The notes under the pieces are model-generated. The model ran no database searches. It was not told the DNA's origin and saw nothing but the letters and a program-made list of their open reading frames with translations. A stretch of DNA of 37,650 nt from a virus: the IMG/VR virus record IMGVR_UViG_3300045988_143600. One strand, 5' to 3'. The position numbers and the translations under genes were made by a program. Every line of letters starts with the position of its first letter. Positions within the stretch are counted from its first letter, which is position 1. Positions 2,279 to 35,878 of this stretch are shown here, one piece after another.

Positions 2279-3202
2279 TTATACCGCCATATCCATATAT
2301 TTAGCGATTGCAGACAATCCCTTGGCGGTCACATTGCCGTTATCGAGGGCGTTGGAGTATAGATTGACCGCTCCTCTGATAGCCTGTGGACTTTGAGCGA
2401 TACACAGTAAAAATTCAACAGCAGCAGTGTCCTCTCTGATATCCGGAAAGAGCATTTCGATGTCGCTCTTCTTTATCTGCTTAACGCTGTAAAACCGGGT
2501 ATTCTTCGTCCTGTTGCGTATCTGTGCAAACTCCGCTTTCTGCTTTCCGCCAAGTCTGCTTACCGTGGTTTCGTTGCCGACAAAGCATATTCCAAGGGTC
2601 TGTCCCTTTTCGTCAAAGCAGTCGCAAAGGCTTCGGAGAGTATCAATGGCATTTCTGGTGAGATGCTGGGCTTCGTCCACGATTATCACCATGCCGTCCG
2701 AAAGCTTTGACGAGATTTCCAGCCAGAGTCTGCTCACAGAGCCGGAGGATACGTTCAGCTTAGAACCGATAAGCTCCAGCACGGATTTTGATGACTTGAT
2801 GCACGGATTTACCGTTATGTATATACAGTTTGTGCCGTGCTCACGGTAATACTGCCTGCAAGCCTGTGTTTTGCCTATACCTGCGTCACCGCAGGCTATG
2901 GCAAGACCGCCCTGAAGCTGACAGTTGCGTATGATCTTGTACACGTTAGACGATATTGACGTTTCCTTATAGTCTGTGCCGACATAGATTTCAGCTGCAG
3001 CCTGCTTGGTTACAAAGTATTCAATTACTTTTTTCATCTGCTTATCTACATCGCCGTTGTAGGTACCTGACTTAATTGCAGAGTATGAGCTATCGGATAT
3101 ACCAATCTTTTTGCAGACTGCAGCCGCAGATAGATTTTCCGAGTACTGCAGCTGTTTTATCTGTTCCAATGCCCACTCCTGTTTAGCTGTTAGCTTTTTC
3201 AT
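2279..3202 (-). CDS. MuB-like AAA+ ATPase (transposition target-capture protein)
   Basis: N-terminal HTH-like region, Walker A GDAGIGKT and Walker B IIVDEAQHL. It sits immediately downstream of the DDE transposase. Confidence 0.8.
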   Translation of the reverse strand: MKKLTAKQEWALEQIKQLQYSENLSAAAVCKKIGISDSSYSAIKSGTYNGDVDKQMKKVIEYFVTKQAAAEIYVGTDYKETSISSNVYKIIRNCQLQGGLAIACGDAGIGKTQACRQYYREHGTNCIYITVNPCIKSSKSVLELIGSKLNVSSGSVSRLWLEISSKLSDGMVIIVDEAQHLTRNAIDTLRSLCDCFDEKGQTLGICFVGNETTVSRLGGKQKAEFAQIRNRTKNTRFYSVKQIKKSDIEMLFPDIREDTAAVEFLLCIAQSPQAIRGAVNLYSNALDNGNVTAKGLSAIAKYMDMAV

Positions 3203-3205
3203 TTA

Positions 3206-5224
3206 TTAATCACTCCTCCATTTATTCTTCCGCCTCTCGGCGTTTTCGTTCATTTTATCTATATTGACCACAATATCGTCTCCGGAAGCCTTTGATATAC
3301 TTTCCGGTTCATTATCAGCTCTTATCATAATCACATTGGACGGCATAACGATCTTAAAGCTCTGCTTACCATGTGCTGCCTTGAGAGCGGCAGCCTCCAT
3401 AAGGTCGATCTTATGCTCTGAGTTTAAGCCATCTGTGATATTCTGGGCCTCGGCTTTAATAAACCGTTGTACTCTGCGCTGTAAAGCCATTGCATCGGAA
3501 ATCTCTTCCTTGCTTTCGGTGATGTAATCTATAAGCAGCTTGTCTGCACATTCCCAAGTCCAAAGGTAACGGTCCGATTTATCGTAAACCCTTACGCTTC
3601 TAAGATCGGCGGGATCGTATCTTACATAGACCTCCTCGCCCAGGTGACGGTAAGTGTTTTCATAGTCCATAAACCAGACCTTTTCGCCGGATATTTCAAC
3701 AAATACGCCGTTGCGCTTGATCTTTTGTACCCTTGTTGATCTCATAAGCATAAGATTAAGTTCGGCTTCCGGAGCTTTGCGTATTCCTACAGACTTTATA
3801 TCCATATTCCATACGTCGATACGACTCATTCCTTTGTACTTTGTCTCAGCTCCGCCATATTCCTGCATATTAAAATCACCGTCAATATACATATCAATAT
3901 ATTCTCTAATCTCAAAGTCGCAGGGAATCTTGCCTTCTTTAATTCTACGCTTAAGGCTCTCAGGTCGCTGCATAATAGTGCCGCCGCAGTAACCTTCAAA
4001 CATTCTTGCAAACTGCATTGTGACCGTGCTAAATGTACGCTCAATAGGCTTTGCTTTAGCGTTACGGACGATTGCGTTATGCATCGTGATTCCAAGCCTT
4101 TGGAGTATTGTCGGTGGTTCGATCTCAGGGTTATCGGTTTTCCTGCTTCGATGACCTTTTCCGCCAACGTCATGGGTCATAAACTCTCGACCGTTATCAA
4201 AATATACGGCTTTCGGAATGCCAAATCGCATAATTCCATGCCTTAATGCGATGATTGTTGACTGGGAGTTCGGACTGTCGCATATATTCCAGCCGACCAG
4301 CACTCCGCTTTTGGCATCCAAAAAGGCTGTAAGGTACAGCCTGTGGATCGTGCCGTTATTTTCATCGTAGGACTGTATATCGAACGTGTGGTTATCTGCG
4401 ATCCAGACGTCGTTAGCGTGGAGACCGTCGTACATACGGCTGATATATGGCAGGCATTTATCTTTCATAGCCTTATCGCCGTCGCGCATATATGTAAGCA
4501 CGGCTTGTGGTATTTCCGACTTTATATGCCGCCTGAAAGTATTGTCTGACGGGAAGTTTGATACCATTGACGGATACCACTCTTTTGCACATTCAAGCGT
4601 TAGGTCGTAACAACGCGAAACGGTAGGTTTGTTTTCGGAAAGATAGAAATAGCAAAACTGCTCCCACAGCTCCGGTGGGATACTGCTCTTACCCTTATTG
4701 GCTCCGCCTCGATTTTCACAAAGCCCCTGCAGATTATTATTTCTGTAGGCTGCATACTTGCGGTATAGTATATCCACCGACACTTTGATATCATTATGCT
4801 CGAGCTGACACTTGCCGACGTAAAGCTTATCCACTTCGGTTTTCTTTCCGGGGTATTGATCCCGGTAACGCTGCCAGTCTCTGAGGATATCTACCCAGAG
4901 TGCGATTTCATCACGCTCATCTTCGGAAAACTCTTCGATTGACGTTTTCACAGGCTTTGACGTTTTCACAGGCTTTTTGGGCTGTTTTAATGCATTTTTA
5001 ACAGGCTGTGCAACAAGTTCTAAGCCCGCTTCCGCTCTTTTCTGAGCATAGTATTTTGCCTGCAGGCCTTCGGGGAGTGATGATATTGGGATCATATATT
5101 TAGGACGGTTCCTGTCGTTGATTTCGATATTGCATGACAATTTTCCGTCCTTGCACAGTTTCTTTATATATCGTTCACTGCAGCCTTTAAGATCAGCAGT
5201 TTTGGCAACCGTCAAATATTCCAC
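3206..5224 (-). CDS. MuA-like DDE transposase (rve/integrase core with N-terminal DNA-binding domains)
   Basis: 672 aa. N-terminal HTH (LTVAKTADLKGCSERYIKKLCKDGKL). Catalytic-core motifs VWIADNHTFD and VYFDNGREF. Has the size and MuB-adjacent position typical of Mu A. Confidence 0.85.
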   Translation of the reverse strand: MEYLTVAKTADLKGCSERYIKKLCKDGKLSCNIEINDRNRPKYMIPISSLPEGLQAKYYAQKRAEAGLELVAQPVKNALKQPKKPVKTSKPVKTSIEEFSEDERDEIALWVDILRDWQRYRDQYPGKKTEVDKLYVGKCQLEHNDIKVSVDILYRKYAAYRNNNLQGLCENRGGANKGKSSIPPELWEQFCYFYLSENKPTVSRCYDLTLECAKEWYPSMVSNFPSDNTFRRHIKSEIPQAVLTYMRDGDKAMKDKCLPYISRMYDGLHANDVWIADNHTFDIQSYDENNGTIHRLYLTAFLDAKSGVLVGWNICDSPNSQSTIIALRHGIMRFGIPKAVYFDNGREFMTHDVGGKGHRSRKTDNPEIEPPTILQRLGITMHNAIVRNAKAKPIERTFSTVTMQFARMFEGYCGGTIMQRPESLKRRIKEGKIPCDFEIREYIDMYIDGDFNMQEYGGAETKYKGMSRIDVWNMDIKSVGIRKAPEAELNLMLMRSTRVQKIKRNGVFVEISGEKVWFMDYENTYRHLGEEVYVRYDPADLRSVRVYDKSDRYLWTWECADKLLIDYITESKEEISDAMALQRRVQRFIKAEAQNITDGLNSEHKIDLMEAAALKAAHGKQSFKIVMPSNVIMIRADNEPESISKASGDDIVVNIDKMNENAERRKNKWRSD

Positions 5225-5272
5225 ATCATCACCTCCCGAAGTTACTTGACAAAACTAATGTTTTCTGATATA

Positions 5273-5476
5273 CTAAGTATCAGAGCCAGAACGGTTGTTT
5301 ACGAGGTCGGACAGAAAATCTTCTGTTTCGGTCAATACTGCAAGAATGGTCGCAACATTCCTGCGGAGCTGTTCAGGCTCTATTTTTATGTCCTCAAGGC
5401 AGCTTGCCTGAGCCAGAAGCCGGGCTTGTCCCACCGCATGAGACAGTACTTGTGTTTTAAATTCCTTGTATTTCAT
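5273..5476 (-). CDS. Hypothetical early protein (67 aa)
   Basis: ORF with an AAAGGAAG RBS, directly upstream of the transposase gene. Confidence 0.5.
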   Translation of the reverse strand: MKYKEFKTQVLSHAVGQARLLAQASCLEDIKIEPEQLRRNVATILAVLTETEDFLSDLVNNRSGSDT

Positions 5477-5495
5477 TGGTTACACTTCCTTTCTC

Positions 5496-5536
5496 GGTCT
5501 GCCATCATCAGTACCGGGAGACCGTCCCCGGCAGAC
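5496..5536. repeat. 41-bp direct repeat, copy 1
   Basis: GGTCTGCCATCATCAGTACCGGGAGACCGTCCCCGGCAGAC is identical to 6152..6192. Confidence 0.95.
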
Positions 5537-6151
5537 CGAACCGCCTGTTGCGGCTCGGTTTCGGCTAGAAAAATCGGAATGTATAAGTCTACTCCTTCCG
5601 AAAGAGTACCCTGCGCACTTATACTGCGTTGCACAACCTTGTCGACTAGGTTGATTGAGTTGGCTTTCACATCAGGACTTGCACCTGATAGGCTTACGCT
5701 TGCGAACCTAGCACTATGCGTGAACATTTAGCCGCCCCGATTATTACCGAAACGGCAAGGTAGATAGGATAAAAAGTTATCCTAAGTGGGTCTGATACGC
5801 TCAGACGGGCGGTATCTTTATGTTGTCTTTAGACTGTGTTATAAAAATACAAAAGACGTTCCAGCTGGTGCAAACATTAAGCTCATGCGCTCTCAGCTTG
5901 CATTTACGAGTTCGCACCTTAAGGAAAGTCGGAACCCTTATAACAAAACCTGTACCTCGGCTAATTCAACCCGACGACACGTAGCCAGAACACGTGGTTT
6001 TTAAGTCATACGCTACCGATATTTTATGTCCTCGGTCTACAGACTGTATGACAGGCTTGGTTCAAGATCTAAGTCGTTACCTCTGAGCTTGCAAGCTGCA
6101 GGTGATTCACTATATCCCCTATGGCGGGCAAGCACGGCACCTGCATATTTT

Positions 6152-6192
6152 GGTCTGCCATCATCAGTACCGGGAGACCGTCCCCGGCAGAC
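6152..6192. repeat. 41-bp direct repeat, copy 2
   Basis: Identical to 5496..5536. It abuts the stop codon of the Ner-like gene. Confidence 0.95.
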
Positions 6193-6199
6193 AGCCGAG

Positions 6200-6427
6200 T
6201 TACTGTCGGCTGTTCCGGCTGTTTCGTGATCTGCCGCACAAATCGTCAAGACTGCATTGCAGCACATTGGCTATCCTGATCGTAGTCTTAAGAGAGGGCG
6301 TCAAAACGCCCTGCTCTATCTTGCACACGGTCACATTGCTGATCCCCGCATACTTAGCAAGCTCTCTCTGATTAAGATCACGCTGCTCTCTAATCTGCTT
6401 TATGCTTTTCCCAATATCTGCGCTCAT
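6200..6427 (-). CDS. Ner/Cro-like XRE-family HTH regulator
   Basis: IKQIREQRDLNQRELAKYAGISNVTVCKIEQG is an HTH_3 motif. AAAGGAGGGA RBS precedes the ATG at 6427. It lies in the early operon, divergent from the repressor. Confidence 0.75.
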   Translation of the reverse strand: MSADIGKSIKQIREQRDLNQRELAKYAGISNVTVCKIEQGVLTPSLKTTIRIANVLQCSLDDLCGRSRNSRNSRQ

Positions 6428-6623
6428 AAAGGCGTTCCCTCCTTTTAGCAAAGTATATATCTCTGATAAGAGAGAGGATAAGGTGCATACAGATCAATCC
6501 GGATAGTGTAAGCAACGGTATGATCCAGAACTCGGAATGTCCGCTAAGACTTGTTATGGCACACCATAGCATGATAATGGCAAACATGGTAAGCACCTTT
6601 CCCTCGTCCGTAAGTTTTTTCAT
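6390..6623 (-). CDS. Small membrane protein (2 predicted TM segments)
   Basis: Hydrophobic stretches MFAIIMLWCAITSL and IIPLLTLSGLICMHLILSL. GGAGG-like RBS. The 3' end overlaps the Ner-like start. Confidence 0.5.
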   Translation of the reverse strand: MKKLTDEGKVLTMFAIIMLWCAITSLSGHSEFWIIPLLTLSGLICMHLILSLIRDIYFAKRRERLYERRYWEKHKAD

Positions 6624-7183: not shown

Positions 7184-7212
7184 ATTATAACTAGATTTTT
7201 TCTAATTGTCAA
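7184..7212 (-). promoter_or_regulatory. Early promoter (consensus sigma-A type), minus strand
   Basis: The minus strand reads TTGACA-(17 nt)-TATAAT exactly, with the -35 at 7207-7212 and the -10 at 7184-7189. It faces the early operon. Confidence 0.65.
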
Positions 7213-7280: not shown

Positions 7281-7982
7281 TTGGATATTTTGGATAGAAT
7301 AACTATGCTTTTAGGCAATCGAGAGCAAAAAGAATTGACTAATTACCTGAAATTAAATAATGTTGCTTTTTCAGAATGGAAGTCTGGGAAAAGCAAATCA
7401 TATAGAAAATATCTAATTGAAATTGCTGAATTTTTTGATGTTTCAATAGATTACCTTGTTTACGGCAAAGAAAAAAGCTCACCAGCGGAACAGTTGACCG
7501 ATGATGAGCAAGAGTTACTTACATATTATAAGGAATTAGATTTAATGAAAAAGGGTCAAGTCCTCGAACGTGCCAAGGTCCTTTTTGAGCAGTCAAAAAT
7601 ACCATTAAAAGAGCTTGAAAACAGTGTTTTCATAGAGTACTATTCGTTGCCTGTCAGTGCCGGAACTGGCGTTGATCTGGATGGCTGCGAAAAAGGTATG
7701 TTGGAGGTTAAGAAAACGCAGCTCACTCTTGAGGCTAATTTTGCTCTAAGAGTGTCTGGCAACAGCATGGAGCCTGTATTCCACGACGGAGACGTAGTTC
7801 TGATAGCCTCGCAGCCATCTGTTGAGATCGGCGAGATAGGCATTTTTATACTTAACGGGGAAGGATTTATAAAGAAGTTCGGCGGAGATCGCTTGATTTC
7901 CCTTAACCCGGATTATGATGATATTCCGCTGCATGATTATGATAGTATCTATTGCCGGGGAAAGGTTATTGGAACTGTATGA
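7281..7982 (+). CDS. CI/LexA-type repressor (N-terminal HTH, C-terminal S24 peptidase)
   Basis: HTH region at the N-terminus. The C-terminus LRVSGNSMEPVFHDGDVVLIA...GEGFIKKF carries the Ser/Lys dyad context of S24 autopeptidases. Transcribed divergently from the early operon. The TTG start at 7281 is uncertain; ATG at 7305 is an alternative. Confidence 0.8.
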   Translation: MDILDRITMLLGNREQKELTNYLKLNNVAFSEWKSGKSKSYRKYLIEIAEFFDVSIDYLVYGKEKSSPAEQLTDDEQELLTYYKELDLMKKGQVLERAKVLFEQSKIPLKELENSVFIEYYSLPVSAGTGVDLDGCEKGMLEVKKTQLTLEANFALRVSGNSMEPVFHDGDVVLIASQPSVEIGEIGIFILNGEGFIKKFGGDRLISLNPDYDDIPLHDYDSIYCRGKVIGTV

Positions 7983-10259: not shown

Positions 10260-11114
10260 CTGATTAAAATTGCTATGTACATAACGCTGGGTAGTTGTTA
10301 TATCAACGTGTCCGAGCAATGCTCTAAGGGTTTCAATATCTGCACCGCACTGAATAAGATACGTAGCATAGCTATGTCTAAGCTTGTGCGGGGTGAGATA
10401 CTGTAAATCAGGATACTTTGTTTTTTGTTGCTCATAGAACGTTCTATAGAGCCTGTTATAACGTCTAAGAGATATTACTGTATGCGTTATAGGTGAAACG
10501 AACAGAAAGCCGTCTGAAACGTCCTGAGAGCGTATCTGATGAAGAATAGCTATTGCATTACTATGCAAGGGGATAAGCCTATCACGGCGAGATTTTGTGG
10601 TCTGTACAATCCTATCACCGCATGAAGTATGTACGAGTGTCTGACAAACTTTAAGATATCTGTTATCAAGGTCAATGTTATCCCAACTAAGAGCGAGAAG
10701 TTCACCACGGCGGAGACCTGTCTACAAGTCAAGCTGAAACATTCTGCAAACTCTACTATCATCATCAAAGAGATGTACGAGATTATCGGGGCTAAAATAT
10801 TCAGCTTCTTTTTTTATACGTTTTGGAGGTTTAATATAGTCGCAAGGGTTTTTGTCACAATAACCATTAACTATAGCTTCACGGAATACACGTTTAAGTA
10901 AGAAATATGAACGTCTTTGGCGGTCATTACTGTAAGATAGGGTGGATTTAAGACAATTCTGAATATCAATAGGCTTTACGCTCAGAAGCTCCATATCGGC
11001 TATATAACCGAAGTGTTTTTGATTTATATAGTAATAGTCCTTATAGCAATCATAGGCTATCACATCAACGCAGTATGCGTTATAGAACATCTCAAACCAT
11101 TCTTTAAAAATCAT
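10224..11114 (-). pseudogene. int: Tyrosine recombinase/integrase interrupted by a single in-frame TAG (10719..10721)
   Basis: The two track ORFs, 10722..11114 and 10224..10568, are in the same frame. Reading through gives ...MFQLDL*TGLRRGELLALSWDNIDL...HKLRHSYATYLIQCGADIETLRALLGHVDITTTQRYVH, which contains the R...HxxR...Y catalytic signature. Confidence 0.75.
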
Positions 11115-12112
11115 AGGACATCATCATTTCCATTCTCTTTAAGATATTGAAGTATATCATTGCAGTTCTTTTCGACTTGACTTGAAAAGGTGAAACTACT
11201 TTCATACTGATAACAGACATTAGCACGAGGGGGAGAAACTATCGGCAAATCGTCTTTAAAGTCTGAATTGCAAAAGATCTCTTTAGTTTTGCGGACAATG
11301 TTCTTGCTACTCCAGAAGAATTTGCCGAATATCTTCTTTACGTCCTTTGTTATGTACTTAGTGACATAGAAAGCTAAATTAGACATTTGTCCGTAAGTCT
11401 GAATAGCGGTTGAGAAACCATAACGCCAATCAGACACGTTATACACAACAGGCAAATCAGATATATCACAGCCGAGTTTATCACATATATGCAGGCGCTT
11501 TATAGTATCTATTTTAAGGGGCTTGTCATGACCCTTAACAAGACGTGTACCACTATCAACGAACTTAAAGTCACAATCGTTTATAAGGGCGTGGCAATGT
11601 ATACCGCCTTTTTTGTGATACTCAGGAACTAAGATATATTTAAGCCCTTTTCTACTAACTGCATTTTCAAGCCATTTTTTCAAAGGCTTTATGACTTCTT
11701 TAGGGTTTGTGCGGTCAAGGTTATCGCCATTAAAGGTAATAGTAAGGAAGTATTTCCAATCATTTTGATAAACTATATCAAAGATACTTTGCTTTGCTCT
11801 TTGAACACTATCGGAACGAACTTCACCGCTTTGTGACTGCTTATCTTTAAACTTACGAGTATCAAGCATATCAAGCATTATGTTTCCGTTTTCGTCCTCA
11901 TACTCAAAATAACATATGTAATTTTCACGAGCCGTTTTAAGTTGCTCTTGTCTTGAACGTTCGTCAATACTATGCTCATGCTTGCAGTGATACTCAAATG
12001 CAGGGTCTTTAAATATGTGTCGATCAGAACGTGTTATAGTGTAACTGCCGTCACGATATTCCTTTATCTTTGTATTGCACTTGACCTCTTTAGAAGACAT
12101 TTTTAGGGACAT
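11111..12112 (-). CDS. HUH rolling-circle replication initiator (Rep)
   Basis: Motif 1 is FLTITF, motif 2 (HUH) is GGIHCHALI and motif 3 is YVTKYITK. GGGAG RBS. Confidence 0.75.
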   Translation of the reverse strand: MSLKMSSKEVKCNTKIKEYRDGSYTITRSDRHIFKDPAFEYHCKHEHSIDERSRQEQLKTARENYICYFEYEDENGNIMLDMLDTRKFKDKQSQSGEVRSDSVQRAKQSIFDIVYQNDWKYFLTITFNGDNLDRTNPKEVIKPLKKWLENAVSRKGLKYILVPEYHKKGGIHCHALINDCDFKFVDSGTRLVKGHDKPLKIDTIKRLHICDKLGCDISDLPVVYNVSDWRYGFSTAIQTYGQMSNLAFYVTKYITKDVKKIFGKFFWSSKNIVRKTKEIFCNSDFKDDLPIVSPPRANVCYQYESSFTFSSQVEKNCNDILQYLKENGNDDVL

Positions 12113-12148
12113 TTATATCAACTCCCATTTATTAGGTGAGTGCTTTTT

Positions 12149-12223
12149 GTGGCTAATATCAAGTAATAGCCACACGCACCGCAGGGCGGCGCAAGCGCTC
12201 GCCCCTGCGGTCGCTCGTGGCTA
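12149..12223. promoter_or_regulatory. GC-rich hairpin cluster, candidate rolling-circle origin or packaging hairpin
   Basis: Alternative stems TGTGGCTA (12149-12156) / TAGCCACA (12167-12174) and TAGCCAC (12167-12173) / GTGGCTA (12217-12223). The second pair encloses CCGCAGGG (12179-12186) / CCCTGCGG (12203-12210). This is the only GC-rich stretch in an AT-rich element, and it lies between the Zot-like stop and the Rep start. Confidence 0.5.
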
Positions 12224-13015
12224 TACGCCACGCCTTTTTCGCAGGTTTCTGCTTGTCTTTCTATCGTGCATGATGTCACTTGTGACATCTACTCCACGAT
12301 TGGCAAGTATTTCCGTGTCGCTGATGTACTCCTTATCAAGCATATTATCTACAAGCTGAGAAGTATCATATAGCTGTCGACTCTGATTAGTCTGCAAATA
12401 CAAACGGCTGTAAAGCTTTTTCGGCATATATGACTTATTCTCCGTATACGCTTCATACTCGTCTATATCATAGGTTTTAACCTTAATAAGACGTGTATAA
12501 GGGTGATGGAATGTAGCACGGCACGTTGACACTGTAGCCGTTATATCTCGTATCTGTTTATCAAGTAGATTAAATCGTTGCACTGTAGCAAGTATCATCA
12601 TTTTGCGCTTTCTACATTGACAAAGGTGCTGAAAAAGCGGTTTAGAGACGGCTCTTTTACCACCTGAGAAATCTCGTGAATTGAAGATAGTGCCTATCTC
12701 ATCAATTACGACTATACAATTCTTAGGAGCGTGCAGGATATCTTGTGCGGAATTAAGCTTATAAATATTCGTCCACTCAGGGAAGTTTTGAAGATTGATA
12801 TTTGTAAGTATAGACAACTGAGGATAACGCACGCAATAGTTATATGCTATCTGAGCAAGGGTTGAGGTTTTACCTGTTCCGAATTTACCGGTATAAAGAT
12901 GTATGCCCCAACCTTGAAAGATAGCGGAATTATTGAAGTATGCACCAAAAAGGTGGTCATATACCTCATAGGTGATAAAGGGCGGTATTTGTTTTATGTA
13001 GTCAAATATAATCAT
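12221..13015 (-). CDS. pI/Zot-like P-loop morphogenesis ATPase
   Basis: Walker A is GKFGTGKTS and Walker B is CIVVIDEIG. Size and position after the small TM genes are as in inoviruses. No clear C-terminal TM segment was seen, so the assignment is by family resemblance and context. Confidence 0.6.
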   Translation of the reverse strand: MIIFDYIKQIPPFITYEVYDHLFGAYFNNSAIFQGWGIHLYTGKFGTGKTSTLAQIAYNYCVRYPQLSILTNINLQNFPEWTNIYKLNSAQDILHAPKNCIVVIDEIGTIFNSRDFSGGKRAVSKPLFQHLCQCRKRKMMILATVQRFNLLDKQIRDITATVSTCRATFHHPYTRLIKVKTYDIDEYEAYTENKSYMPKKLYSRLYLQTNQSRQLYDTSQLVDNMLDKEYISDTEILANRGVDVTSDIMHDRKTSRNLRKRRGV

Positions 13016-35637: not shown

Positions 35638-35878
35638 ATTAACACCTCCGTTCGCTCAAACTCAAACTACACGCCCGTTTTAAGGGCTTTCTCTTTCAAG
35701 TGTGAAATTATCCTAAGAATTATTTCAAAACGTGCTATAACGCCGTTAAACGCCGCTAAAATGAAATCAAATAGCAATGCTTCGCCATTCGGATATTTTT
35801 GTTTCAAAATTCCGTTGATGTCCGGCGCTATGTAATCTGAGCTTAAGCGCAGGGGACGAATCAACCTTACGCTTATGA

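Follow-up and report, generated by a model that had tools for sequence, protein, structure and literature searches.

A 656-bp ORF-less cassette lodged in a type II hammerhead ribozyme of a Mu-like phage and its likely excision as RNA

Multiple hammerhead ribozymes (HHRs) flank variable genes in prophages, and tandem arrangements of them cleave in vitro (Perreault 2011, PMC3088659; PMC6155905). Spliced or circular products have been proposed for such clusters but were not detected (PMC3088659), and the role of the hundreds of bacterial and phage HHRs has been open since 2011. Here we describe a 656-bp ORF-less cassette lodged in an HHR, with a complete type II HHR at each border, that is likely excised as RNA. 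It lies in the early operon of a Mu-like phage represented by a viral DNA of 37,650 nucleotides (IMG/VR record IMGVR_UViG_3300045988_143600, henceforth the window). As in the published clusters, a prophage operon contains several HHRs of the same sense, type II among them, and what they flank is variable (compare the relatives L013, L047, and L120 below). The published cases, however, flank small protein genes, whereas the unit in the window is ORF-less and has a conserved RNA fold, and here a near-identical phage without the unit reveals a discrete indel at the ribozyme with a 41-nt duplication. Thus, prophage HHR clusters have been known since 2011, but a structured payload that lacks an ORF and is cleanly polymorphic for presence or absence is new.

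Three other kinds of element invite comparison. Retrozymes and viroid-like HHR circular RNAs of eukaryotes (de la Pena and colleagues; PMC7761336, PMC5680766, PMC7229834) likewise consist of a non-coding unit of a few hundred nucleotides between same-sense HHRs (within ~150-1000 nt), and their monomer runs from cleavage site to cleavage site with the ribozyme bringing the ends together, as we predict here; by contrast, the HHRs in the window are type II rather than type I or III, and the unit occurs as one copy at one site of a DNA phage, with dispersed or tandem copies not found. Self-splicing introns share with the cassette the predicted departure of an insertion from its transcript by RNA catalysis and the existence of ORF-containing (L047 and L120) and ORF-less (window) versions, but the cassette has no intron fold. 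Unlike an intron it does not need exon ligation either, because its site lies between separate cistrons, and it differs from homing introns in that the NUMOD4 protein of its relatives lacks the HNH catalytic histidines, as judged by eye. ROOL (RF03087) and GOLLD (RF01998) are also large non-coding RNAs tied to Firmicutes phages, yet neither matches the cassette in sequence or structure and we identified no common motifs.

A previous inspection of the letters and open reading frames (the sequence-only reading) had pointed to two identical 41-bp repeats, each a stem-loop, on either side of a coding gap in the early operon. Both repeats are indeed perfect and start 656 bp apart, far beyond what chance would yield for a 41-nt identity inside 3 kb, and the gap separates the HTH_3 gene from the 67-aa ORF (Table 1). 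A candidate early promoter, recognized by its consensus match, would drive the operon and transcribe through the cassette. ARAGORN found no tRNA or tmRNA gene in the window.

Table 1. Positions of the features of the cassette and its surroundings in the window (HHR, hammerhead ribozyme; RBS, ribosome-binding site).
Feature	Position	Strand	Remarks
CI/S24 repressor gene	7281-7982	+	divergent from the early promoter candidate
Early promoter candidate, TTGACA-17-TATAAT	7184..7212	-	sigma-70 consensus 12/12, consensus match alone
Cro/Ner-like HTH_3 gene	6200..6451	-	PF01381, E = 6.4e-15; upstream of the cassette
HHR-A, upstream type II HHR	6149..6220 (6220..6149 in transcript order)	-	RF02276, 57.0 bits, E = 2.4e-9, model 1-66
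Core substitution A13->G in HHR-A	6215	-	CGGAAC instead of CGAAAC
Repeat copy 1	6152..6192	-	G16.2-U16.1-C17, stem I hairpin, CUGAUGA core strand, stem II 3' strand, ACC; belongs to HHR-A
Predicted excised RNA, 656 nt	5534..6189	-	cuts between 6190 and 6189 and between 5534 and 5533, from the HHR alignment and the established hammerhead mechanism
Window-lineage 5' part of the payload	6004..6148	-	position of the NUMOD4 ORF in L047 and L120
Second block common to L047	5915..6003	-	81% identity; hairpin CACGU...ACGUG and conserved palindrome CCUUAAGG
Window-lineage expansion between the shared blocks	5734..5914	-	hairpins GUCUGA/UCAGAC and GGAUAA/UUAUCC, enclosed by CCGCC/GGCGG
Conserved structured domain	5572..5733	-	~88% identical to L047 1712-1878
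Four-way junction	5724..5666	-	third arm with T-loop-like 7-nt hairpin loop; within the conserved domain
Hairpin CAACCU/AGGUUG, palindromic loop GUCGAC	5653..5634	-	within the conserved domain
Long hairpin GUAUAAGU.../...ACUUAUAC	5624..5581	-	within the conserved domain
HHR-B, downstream type II HHR	5493..5566	-	RF02276, 57.7 bits, E = 1.5e-9
Repeat copy 2	5496..5536	-	elements as in copy 1; belongs to HHR-B
RBS of the 67-aa ORF, AAAGGAAG	5492..5485	-	directly after HHR-B
67-aa ORF	5273..5476	-	conserved in relatives; upstream of MuA
MuA-type transposase	5224..3206	-	after the 67-aa ORF
MuB-type ATPase	3202..2279	-	same strand as HTH_3 gene, 67-aa ORF, and MuA

Scanning the whole window against Rfam at gathering thresholds gave three matches, two of them to the type II hammerhead family RF02276 on the minus strand. 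These ribozymes, HHR-A and HHR-B, both align over the full model (positions 1-66 of 66), with scores to be set against a gathering cut-off of 37 bits. This alignment identifies each 41-bp repeat as the 3' half of a type II HHR in operon sense (minus strand), an identity that the earlier reader did not recognize, and the stem-loop in each repeat is stem I. The 41-mer reads GUC|UGCCGGGGACGGUCUCCCGGUA-CUGAUGA-UGGCAGACC on the RNA strand, the bar marking the cleavage site. In HHR-A it is preceded by a 5' half (stem II 5' strand, G12-A14 core, and stem III hairpin) that overlaps the last codons of the HTH gene, whose UAA stop (6202-6200) lies inside loop III. In HHR-B the 5' half is borne by the cassette, while the 3' half is resident and leads into the RBS of the 67-aa ORF. 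The non-repeated 5' halves (stem II 5' strand, GAAA, and stem III hairpin) differ between the two ribozymes. A helix that the sequence-only reading had assigned to the interior, CCGAGCCGC/GCGGTTCGG, forms stem III of the downstream ribozyme and is not part of the payload.

Both copies resemble RF02276 in matching the full model and in allowing a pseudoknot between loop I and the 3' tail (CGG(U) with ACC(G)), an interaction described for type II hammerheads (PMC3088659). HHR-B has a fully canonical core (CUGAUGA / GAAA / GUC) and agrees with the conserved positions (C3 U4 G5 A6 N7 G8 A9 / G12 A13 A14 / A15.1-U16.1 / H17) everywhere. The departures from the family are an extra U after A9, present in both ribozymes, and a G at position 13 of HHR-A in the window, where most sister copies have A. 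Loops close stems I and III, while stem II is open, and comparison with the relative L047 supports the stems: stem III of HHR-B shows three double compensatory changes, and all changes in stem I preserve pairing. Further compensatory variants of stems I and III occur among relatives, so that both stems covary.

The sequence-only reading had noted that removal of the unit would leave the HTH stop, one repeat, and the next RBS contiguous. This is exactly what L013 shows: its flanks are 98.6-100% identical to the window, but it has one repeat and a single HHR, composed of the A-type 5' half and the 41-mer, followed by the RBS, and no 656-bp unit. A 22-mer derived from the repeat is found in 13 IMG/VR contigs, six of which align by BLAST over the whole unit with ~99% identity, as does GenBank MT835795; in five of the IMG/VR contigs the two repeats are exact and spaced by 656 bp. 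Single HHRs also occur in IMGVR_UViG_2905450092_000004 (L004/L052), 7000000232_000237 (L011/L045), 3300007501_000198 (L014/L046), 3300029577_000145 (L002), 3300029132_000083 (L050), and Ruminococcus sp. Marseille-P6503 (L082). In distant single-HHR relatives the flanks are 82-88% identical and stem III shows compensatory differences. Farther away, the Mu-like phage L012 still contains an identical 40-nt half. Related Mu-like phages of gut Clostridia thus commonly have one HHR, placed between the Cro/Ner-like gene and the ORF that follows, and the 656 bp are therefore an addition, although L013 itself could have originated by deletion between the repeats rather than predate an insertion. Judged from these alignments, the cassette sits in the ribozyme, with the 41-nt ribozyme 3' half duplicated. 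The idea of a non-coding module acquired within the early operon is thereby upheld.

All copies of the cassette occupy this one site (24 true metagenome copies, 8 viral, and 10 chromosomal). The earlier suggestion of an ORF-less mobile RNA or intron-like element comes nearer than ROOL/GOLLD, since a unit with a self-cleaving ribozyme at either border should leave the transcript. However, nothing pointed to ligation of exons, to movement at the RNA level, or to insertion elsewhere, the 24 metagenome copies all lying in the same place.

Based on this organization, we propose the following course of processing. The 5' half of a ribozyme (stem II strand, GAAA, and stem III) would arrive with the cassette itself, and the same 41-nt 3' half on both sides of the cassette would complete a type II HHR at each border. 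Upon read-through from the early promoter, both HHRs would cut after GUC, setting free a single RNA of 656 nt that begins with a 5'-OH and ends in a 2',3'-cyclic phosphate. The upstream fragment would be the HTH mRNA, ending in the stem III hairpin with a cyclic phosphate, and the downstream fragment would start with a 5'-OH and the stem I hairpin, followed by the RBS, the 67-aa ORF, MuA, and MuB. Since these predicted mRNA ends match those of cassette-less phages, the insertion would be transparent to the processing of the operon and cost it nothing. Gain, loss, and exchange of cassettes most likely occur by DNA recombination between the conserved ribozyme halves.

Folded to its minimum free energy (MFE), the 656-nt RNA forms hammerhead stems I, II, and III anew, with the two ends next to each other and stem II closing the payload. 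Ends juxtaposed in a hammerhead active site are the geometry that allows ligation in viroid-like RNAs. Because its ends fold back into a complete hammerhead, the released RNA is a candidate for circularization, and the junction of the circle would read ...GGCGGUUCGGUC/UGCCGGGG...GGCAGACC-AAAAUAUGCAGG. The permuted or tandem junction (HHR-B 5' half - repeat - AAAA) was absent from all loci and from IMG/VR.

Position 13 belongs to the otherwise strictly conserved core, and changes in the hammerhead core are generally disabling. The G variant of HHR-A is carried by the window, IMGVR_UViG_3300007210_000329 (L006/L038), L072, L074, L076, and L132. Across the 26 loci covering this position, A is found in 20 and G in five, and the nucleotide is deleted in L077; the chromosomal copies are canonical in 9/10 cases and have G in 1/10. 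Judging from the core sequence, release of a free 656-nt RNA is probably impaired in the window. Moreover, since about one-fifth of the copies have A13G at this core position of HHR-A, such release cannot be essential.

Other cassettes at the same site provide a comparison. In L047, whose transposase is 87% identical to that of the window, three HHRs upstream of MuA delimit two cassettes. The first (1212 nt) contains a 221-aa ORF (NUMOD4 / weak HNH_3 / sigma-70-r2-like) and then 450 nt of non-coding sequence; the second contains small genes. In L120, two HHRs flank a NUMOD4 ORF (66% identical to that of L047), a 45-aa ORF, and 180 nt; stem III of its HHR1 is identical to that of HHR-A, and stem III of HHR2 resembles that of HHR-B. 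Cassettes are thus mosaics of shared and unshared pieces. A degenerate stem I pattern retrieved 39 loci from GTDB genomes, mostly Ruminococcus, Oscillospiraceae, and Lachnospiraceae, and 12/39 have tandem arrays of 2-4 HHRs, mostly around small ORFs. These relatives point to Ruminococcus-like Clostridia as the host. Most other tandem cassettes that we examined have an ORF beginning 10-30 nt past the upstream ribozyme, whereas the cassette of the window has none there. Homing by the NUMOD4/HNH protein was considered and rejected, because HNH_3 scores below the cut-off (E = 0.008) and the catalytic histidines are replaced, as judged by eye.

The payload of the window has no credible ORF, and we conclude that it is RNA and not a gene. 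Interior ORFs match neither Pfam nor PHROG, none of the six reading frames stays open around the circularized sequence, and tblastn detected no remnant of the NUMOD4 ORF in the cassette. Four 1-nt indels separate the window from L047 in ~150 nt of shared region, and a small-protein frame conserved among relatives, which would have counted against an RNA, did not emerge from the interior. When we compared positions 5200-6500 with all 4227 Rfam families by cmscan (Infernal), the two hammerheads (RF02276) were the only matches at E <= 10. In particular, the same region has no match at this threshold to ROOL, GOLLD, HEARO, or group I/II introns, so that the resemblance to the ROOL/GOLLD class once proposed for this segment did not hold up. 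Positions 600-2600 of L047 gave the same picture at E <= 10, with no family beyond hammerheads (no ROOL, GOLLD, intron, or HEARO).

Approximately 250 nt of the interior are common to the window and the second lineage, L047, where they lie behind the NUMOD4-domain gene in an HHR-bounded cassette. The shared blocks are 81-88% identical, compared to 72-79% for the flanking coding DNA. Where the window has the expansion between the two blocks, L047 has only the short hairpin GUGGAAAACCAC, and a 15-nt piece of the expansion, CUGAGCGUAUCAGAC, recurs in the L120 cassette. For the 145 nt at the 5' end of the payload we found no homologue. In total, ~330 nt of the payload are specific to the window lineage, apart from the 15-nt piece common to L120.

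Comparison of the two lineages supports a conserved fold in the shared domain. We drew a structure of the conserved domain (5733..5572) together with HHR-B by hand, with both lineages in view and on a two-lineage alignment only, and in it 100% of the cells pair and none is broken. Seven pairs show double changes, four of them outside the HHR, and six show one-sided changes that all still give G-U, G-C, or A-U. A paired 1-nt indel adds one C-G pair in the conserved domain, where all other differences from L047 likewise lie in loops or preserve pairing. By contrast, slid controls pair at 33-40%. The sequence-only reading had named a lack of covariation as grounds for abandoning a structured RNA; the four compensatory changes outside the HHR and the absence of broken pairs in the two lineages support it for the shared part. 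G-U pairs favor the operon strand, and most of the local helices listed earlier are present in the MFE fold. Folds from RNAalifold vary with the boundaries chosen. MFE z-scores against shuffles are -2.9 and -2.6 for the sense and antisense strands of the 656 nt and -2.2 for the interior by itself; because this excess stability is modest and similar on both strands, folding energy alone proves neither structure nor strand.

A covariance model of the conserved domain (R1) scores 205 bits in the window and 175 bits in L047 and found no match in 60 other HHR-bearing or NUMOD4-bearing loci. Two further conserved-block patterns retrieved the same two lineages only from IMG/VR, and a 22-mer pattern from the interior had 0 matches in GTDB genomes and, in metagenomes, found only near-identical copies in the same context. 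Several leads were discarded. The SNPs 6037 G>A and 5855 C>U are linked and might be a compensatory pair in a 4-bp helix (AGAC/GUCU), but this signal is too weak to use; the 18-mer CAGGTGCAAGTCCTGATG led to 21 extra viral contigs, all with the coding motif GASPDG of YqaJ-type exonucleases; and the 18-mer GGTTCGCAAGCGTAAGCC led to two, both chance coding matches. The best complementarity of the RNA to the phage itself, as for an antisense target, is 13-14 nt and at chance level.

These comparisons bear on a reading that we consider unlikely but deserving of serious attention, in which the cassette is a NUMOD4-type HHR cassette that has lost its ORF and specifies a functionless RNA that persists because ribozyme excision renders it harmless, and its 3' block is conserved merely through recent exchange between lineages. 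Indeed, L047 and L120 have an ORF in the place taken by 145 nt of unique sequence in the window, the cassettes are mosaic, the A13G variant reaches an appreciable frequency, and several scans of three collections turned up the family in no more than two lineages. Set against this are the missing trace of any ORF, the stronger conservation of the shared blocks than of the neighboring genes, and the extremely wide distribution of the filled allele; the compensatory changes in the shared domain, together with indels that leave pairing intact, speak for selection acting on the fold. We favor an ORF-less cassette excised as RNA over a decaying one.

On a more speculative plane, the cassette might be a prokaryotic counterpart of retrozymes and viroid-like elements: an HHR-delimited, possibly circular RNA whose conserved four-way-junction/T-loop domain and palindromic loops would confer a role at the RNA level (as multimer or decoy), with ribozyme halves serving as mobile ends between Mu-like phages of abundant human gut Clostridia. 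We hold this broad proposal to be distinctly improbable, and more improbable still its specific form, in which the 656-nt RNA is ligated by the HHR or RtcB into a circle that spreads via cleaved HHR sites and reverse transcription. The latter draws on the arrangement of two same-sense HHRs around a 656-nt non-coding unit, which has the architecture and size of plant retrozymes (PMC7761336; PMC5680766), on unit boundaries that can be placed exactly at the cleavage sites, on the juxtaposed ends in the MFE fold, and on the circles proposed for prophage HHR clusters (PMC3088659). But all copies seen share one insertion site, A13G affects HHR-A, and Pfam scans of 16 window ORFs, the ten largest unassigned ones included, detected no reverse transcriptase. 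Perreault et al. detected neither circular nor spliced products in their cases (PMC3088659), and DNA recombination between 41-bp identical segments is the simpler explanation.

The notion that the cassette specifies a big, elaborately structured ROOL/GOLLD-like phage RNA, which would have a cellular role of its own and be delivered by ribozyme processing, appears very unlikely. Its length of 450-580 nt in two lineages, the phage context, and the conserved multi-helix domain would fit, and the self-complementary loop GUCGAC and the palindrome CCUUAAGG could mediate RNA-RNA contacts; yet neither lineage has an Rfam match to these classes at E <= 10, the two lineages have less than half of the RNA in common, and the distribution is tiny. 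Least probable of all is a cis-regulatory domain upstream of HHR-B that modulates its folding or cleavage and so the expression of the 67-aa ORF, MuA, and MuB: the 5' strand of stem II in the downstream HHR always directly adjoins the conserved domain, and UUCGGAAGGAG / UUCCGA and their surroundings could pair in two ways that exclude each other, but the same HHR is present without the domain in L120 and in phages that lack the cassette, and no ligand-binding family was matched. Because L120 has an HHR-B-like ribozyme while lacking the conserved domain, the ribozyme does not need that domain.

The excised-cassette interpretation suggests that phage hammerheads act as punctuation, allowing accessory cassettes to be added without changing the processed mRNAs, and that the payload of an HHR cassette can be RNA instead of protein. 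Were the excised RNA to prove circular, it would link bacterial DNA-encoded hammerheads to the retrozyme and viroid world. For the role of phage HHRs, the locus offers a natural genetic handle: a widespread gut prophage with an almost isogenic cassette-less allele, a natural A13G core mutant, and relatives with other contents.

The prevalence of the filled allele can be gauged from a spurious 84-aa ORF that runs from the payload through HHR-B into the flank and is therefore bound to this context by construction. It is listed in 8013 blocks of an assembly collection, each corresponding to the filled allele, while a 72-aa interior ORF is not on record. Contigs with the filled allele measure 0.3-3.1 Mb, and the host genes beside the prophage end differ among them, as expected for a transposable phage.

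Pairs of type II hammerhead ribozymes bound cassettes at loci other than the ORF-less 656-nt one of the window (coordinates in the table below). One such recurrent cassette, present both in another Mu-like phage and in a MAG of Ruminococcus flavefaciens, carries a 48-aa forward ORF together with a 44-68-aa ORF on the opposite strand that, judged by eye, looks like KTSC. At a further locus, L119, the interval between two hammerheads contains no convincing ORF and may represent a second ORF-less cassette. The protein encoded by the cassettes that two relatives (L047 and L120) carry at the same site as the window combines a NUMOD4 motif with a degenerate HNH_3 region, from which the catalytic histidines are absent, and with a C-terminal half resembling sigma-70 region 2. 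In other phages, remoter homologues of this protein (40-43% identity) are encoded beside a gene for a tyrosine integrase or recombinase.

Features of the window and of related loci
Feature	Location	Strand	Details
Recurrent cassette between two type II hammerheads	L012 1164-1713; L118 469-1001		
Inter-hammerhead interval	L119 4537-4805		269 nt
Cassette-borne NUMOD4 protein	L047 767-1432; L120 4001-4648		215-221 aa
Tandem duplication, 9 nt	window 6203-6220	minus	AAACAGCCG x2; 3' end of HTH gene
Tandem duplication, 18 bp	window 4939-4974		exact; N-terminal region of MuA gene; encodes repeated KPVKTS
Promoter-like element	window 5246-5274	plus	TTGACA-17-TATACT with TG extension; 11/12 match
Weak terminator-like hairpin	window 5365-5381		downstream of promoter-like element
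Rolling-circle Rep, ORF2/G2P type	within window 11111-13015	minus	PF23343, E = 2.8e-15
Zot-like ATPase	within window 11111-13015	minus	PF05707, E = 2.8e-8
RAGATH-28 RNA (RF03052)	window 35779-35870	minus	46.9 bits (cut-off 45.3)

Two genes of the early operon contain tandem duplications. The duplication in the HTH gene lengthens its ORF (RNS-RNS) into the 5' half of HHR-A, the hammerhead at the HTH side of the window's cassette, and one of its two units bears the A13G core substitution of this ribozyme; a metagenome copy (L077) lacks one unit. The other duplication lies in the MuA gene. A promoter-like element is located inside the 48-nt gap separating the 67-aa ORF from MuA and is directed antisense, into the 67-aa ORF and HHR-B, the second hammerhead of the cassette. 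Its hexamers are identical in L047, and production of an antisense RNA from it is possible.

Outside the early operon, the Rep and Zot-like ATPase genes constitute an inovirus-like module that has the Mu-like late genes (about 16.4-37.5 kb) on one side and the early region, also Mu-like (below about 8 kb), on the other. Late and early genes share one strand and the late ones come first, so the window is either permuted or contains more than one element. The RAGATH-28 RNA lies immediately upstream of the packaging genes, and the match is also retained in five related phages (L003, L007, L009, L011, and L014).
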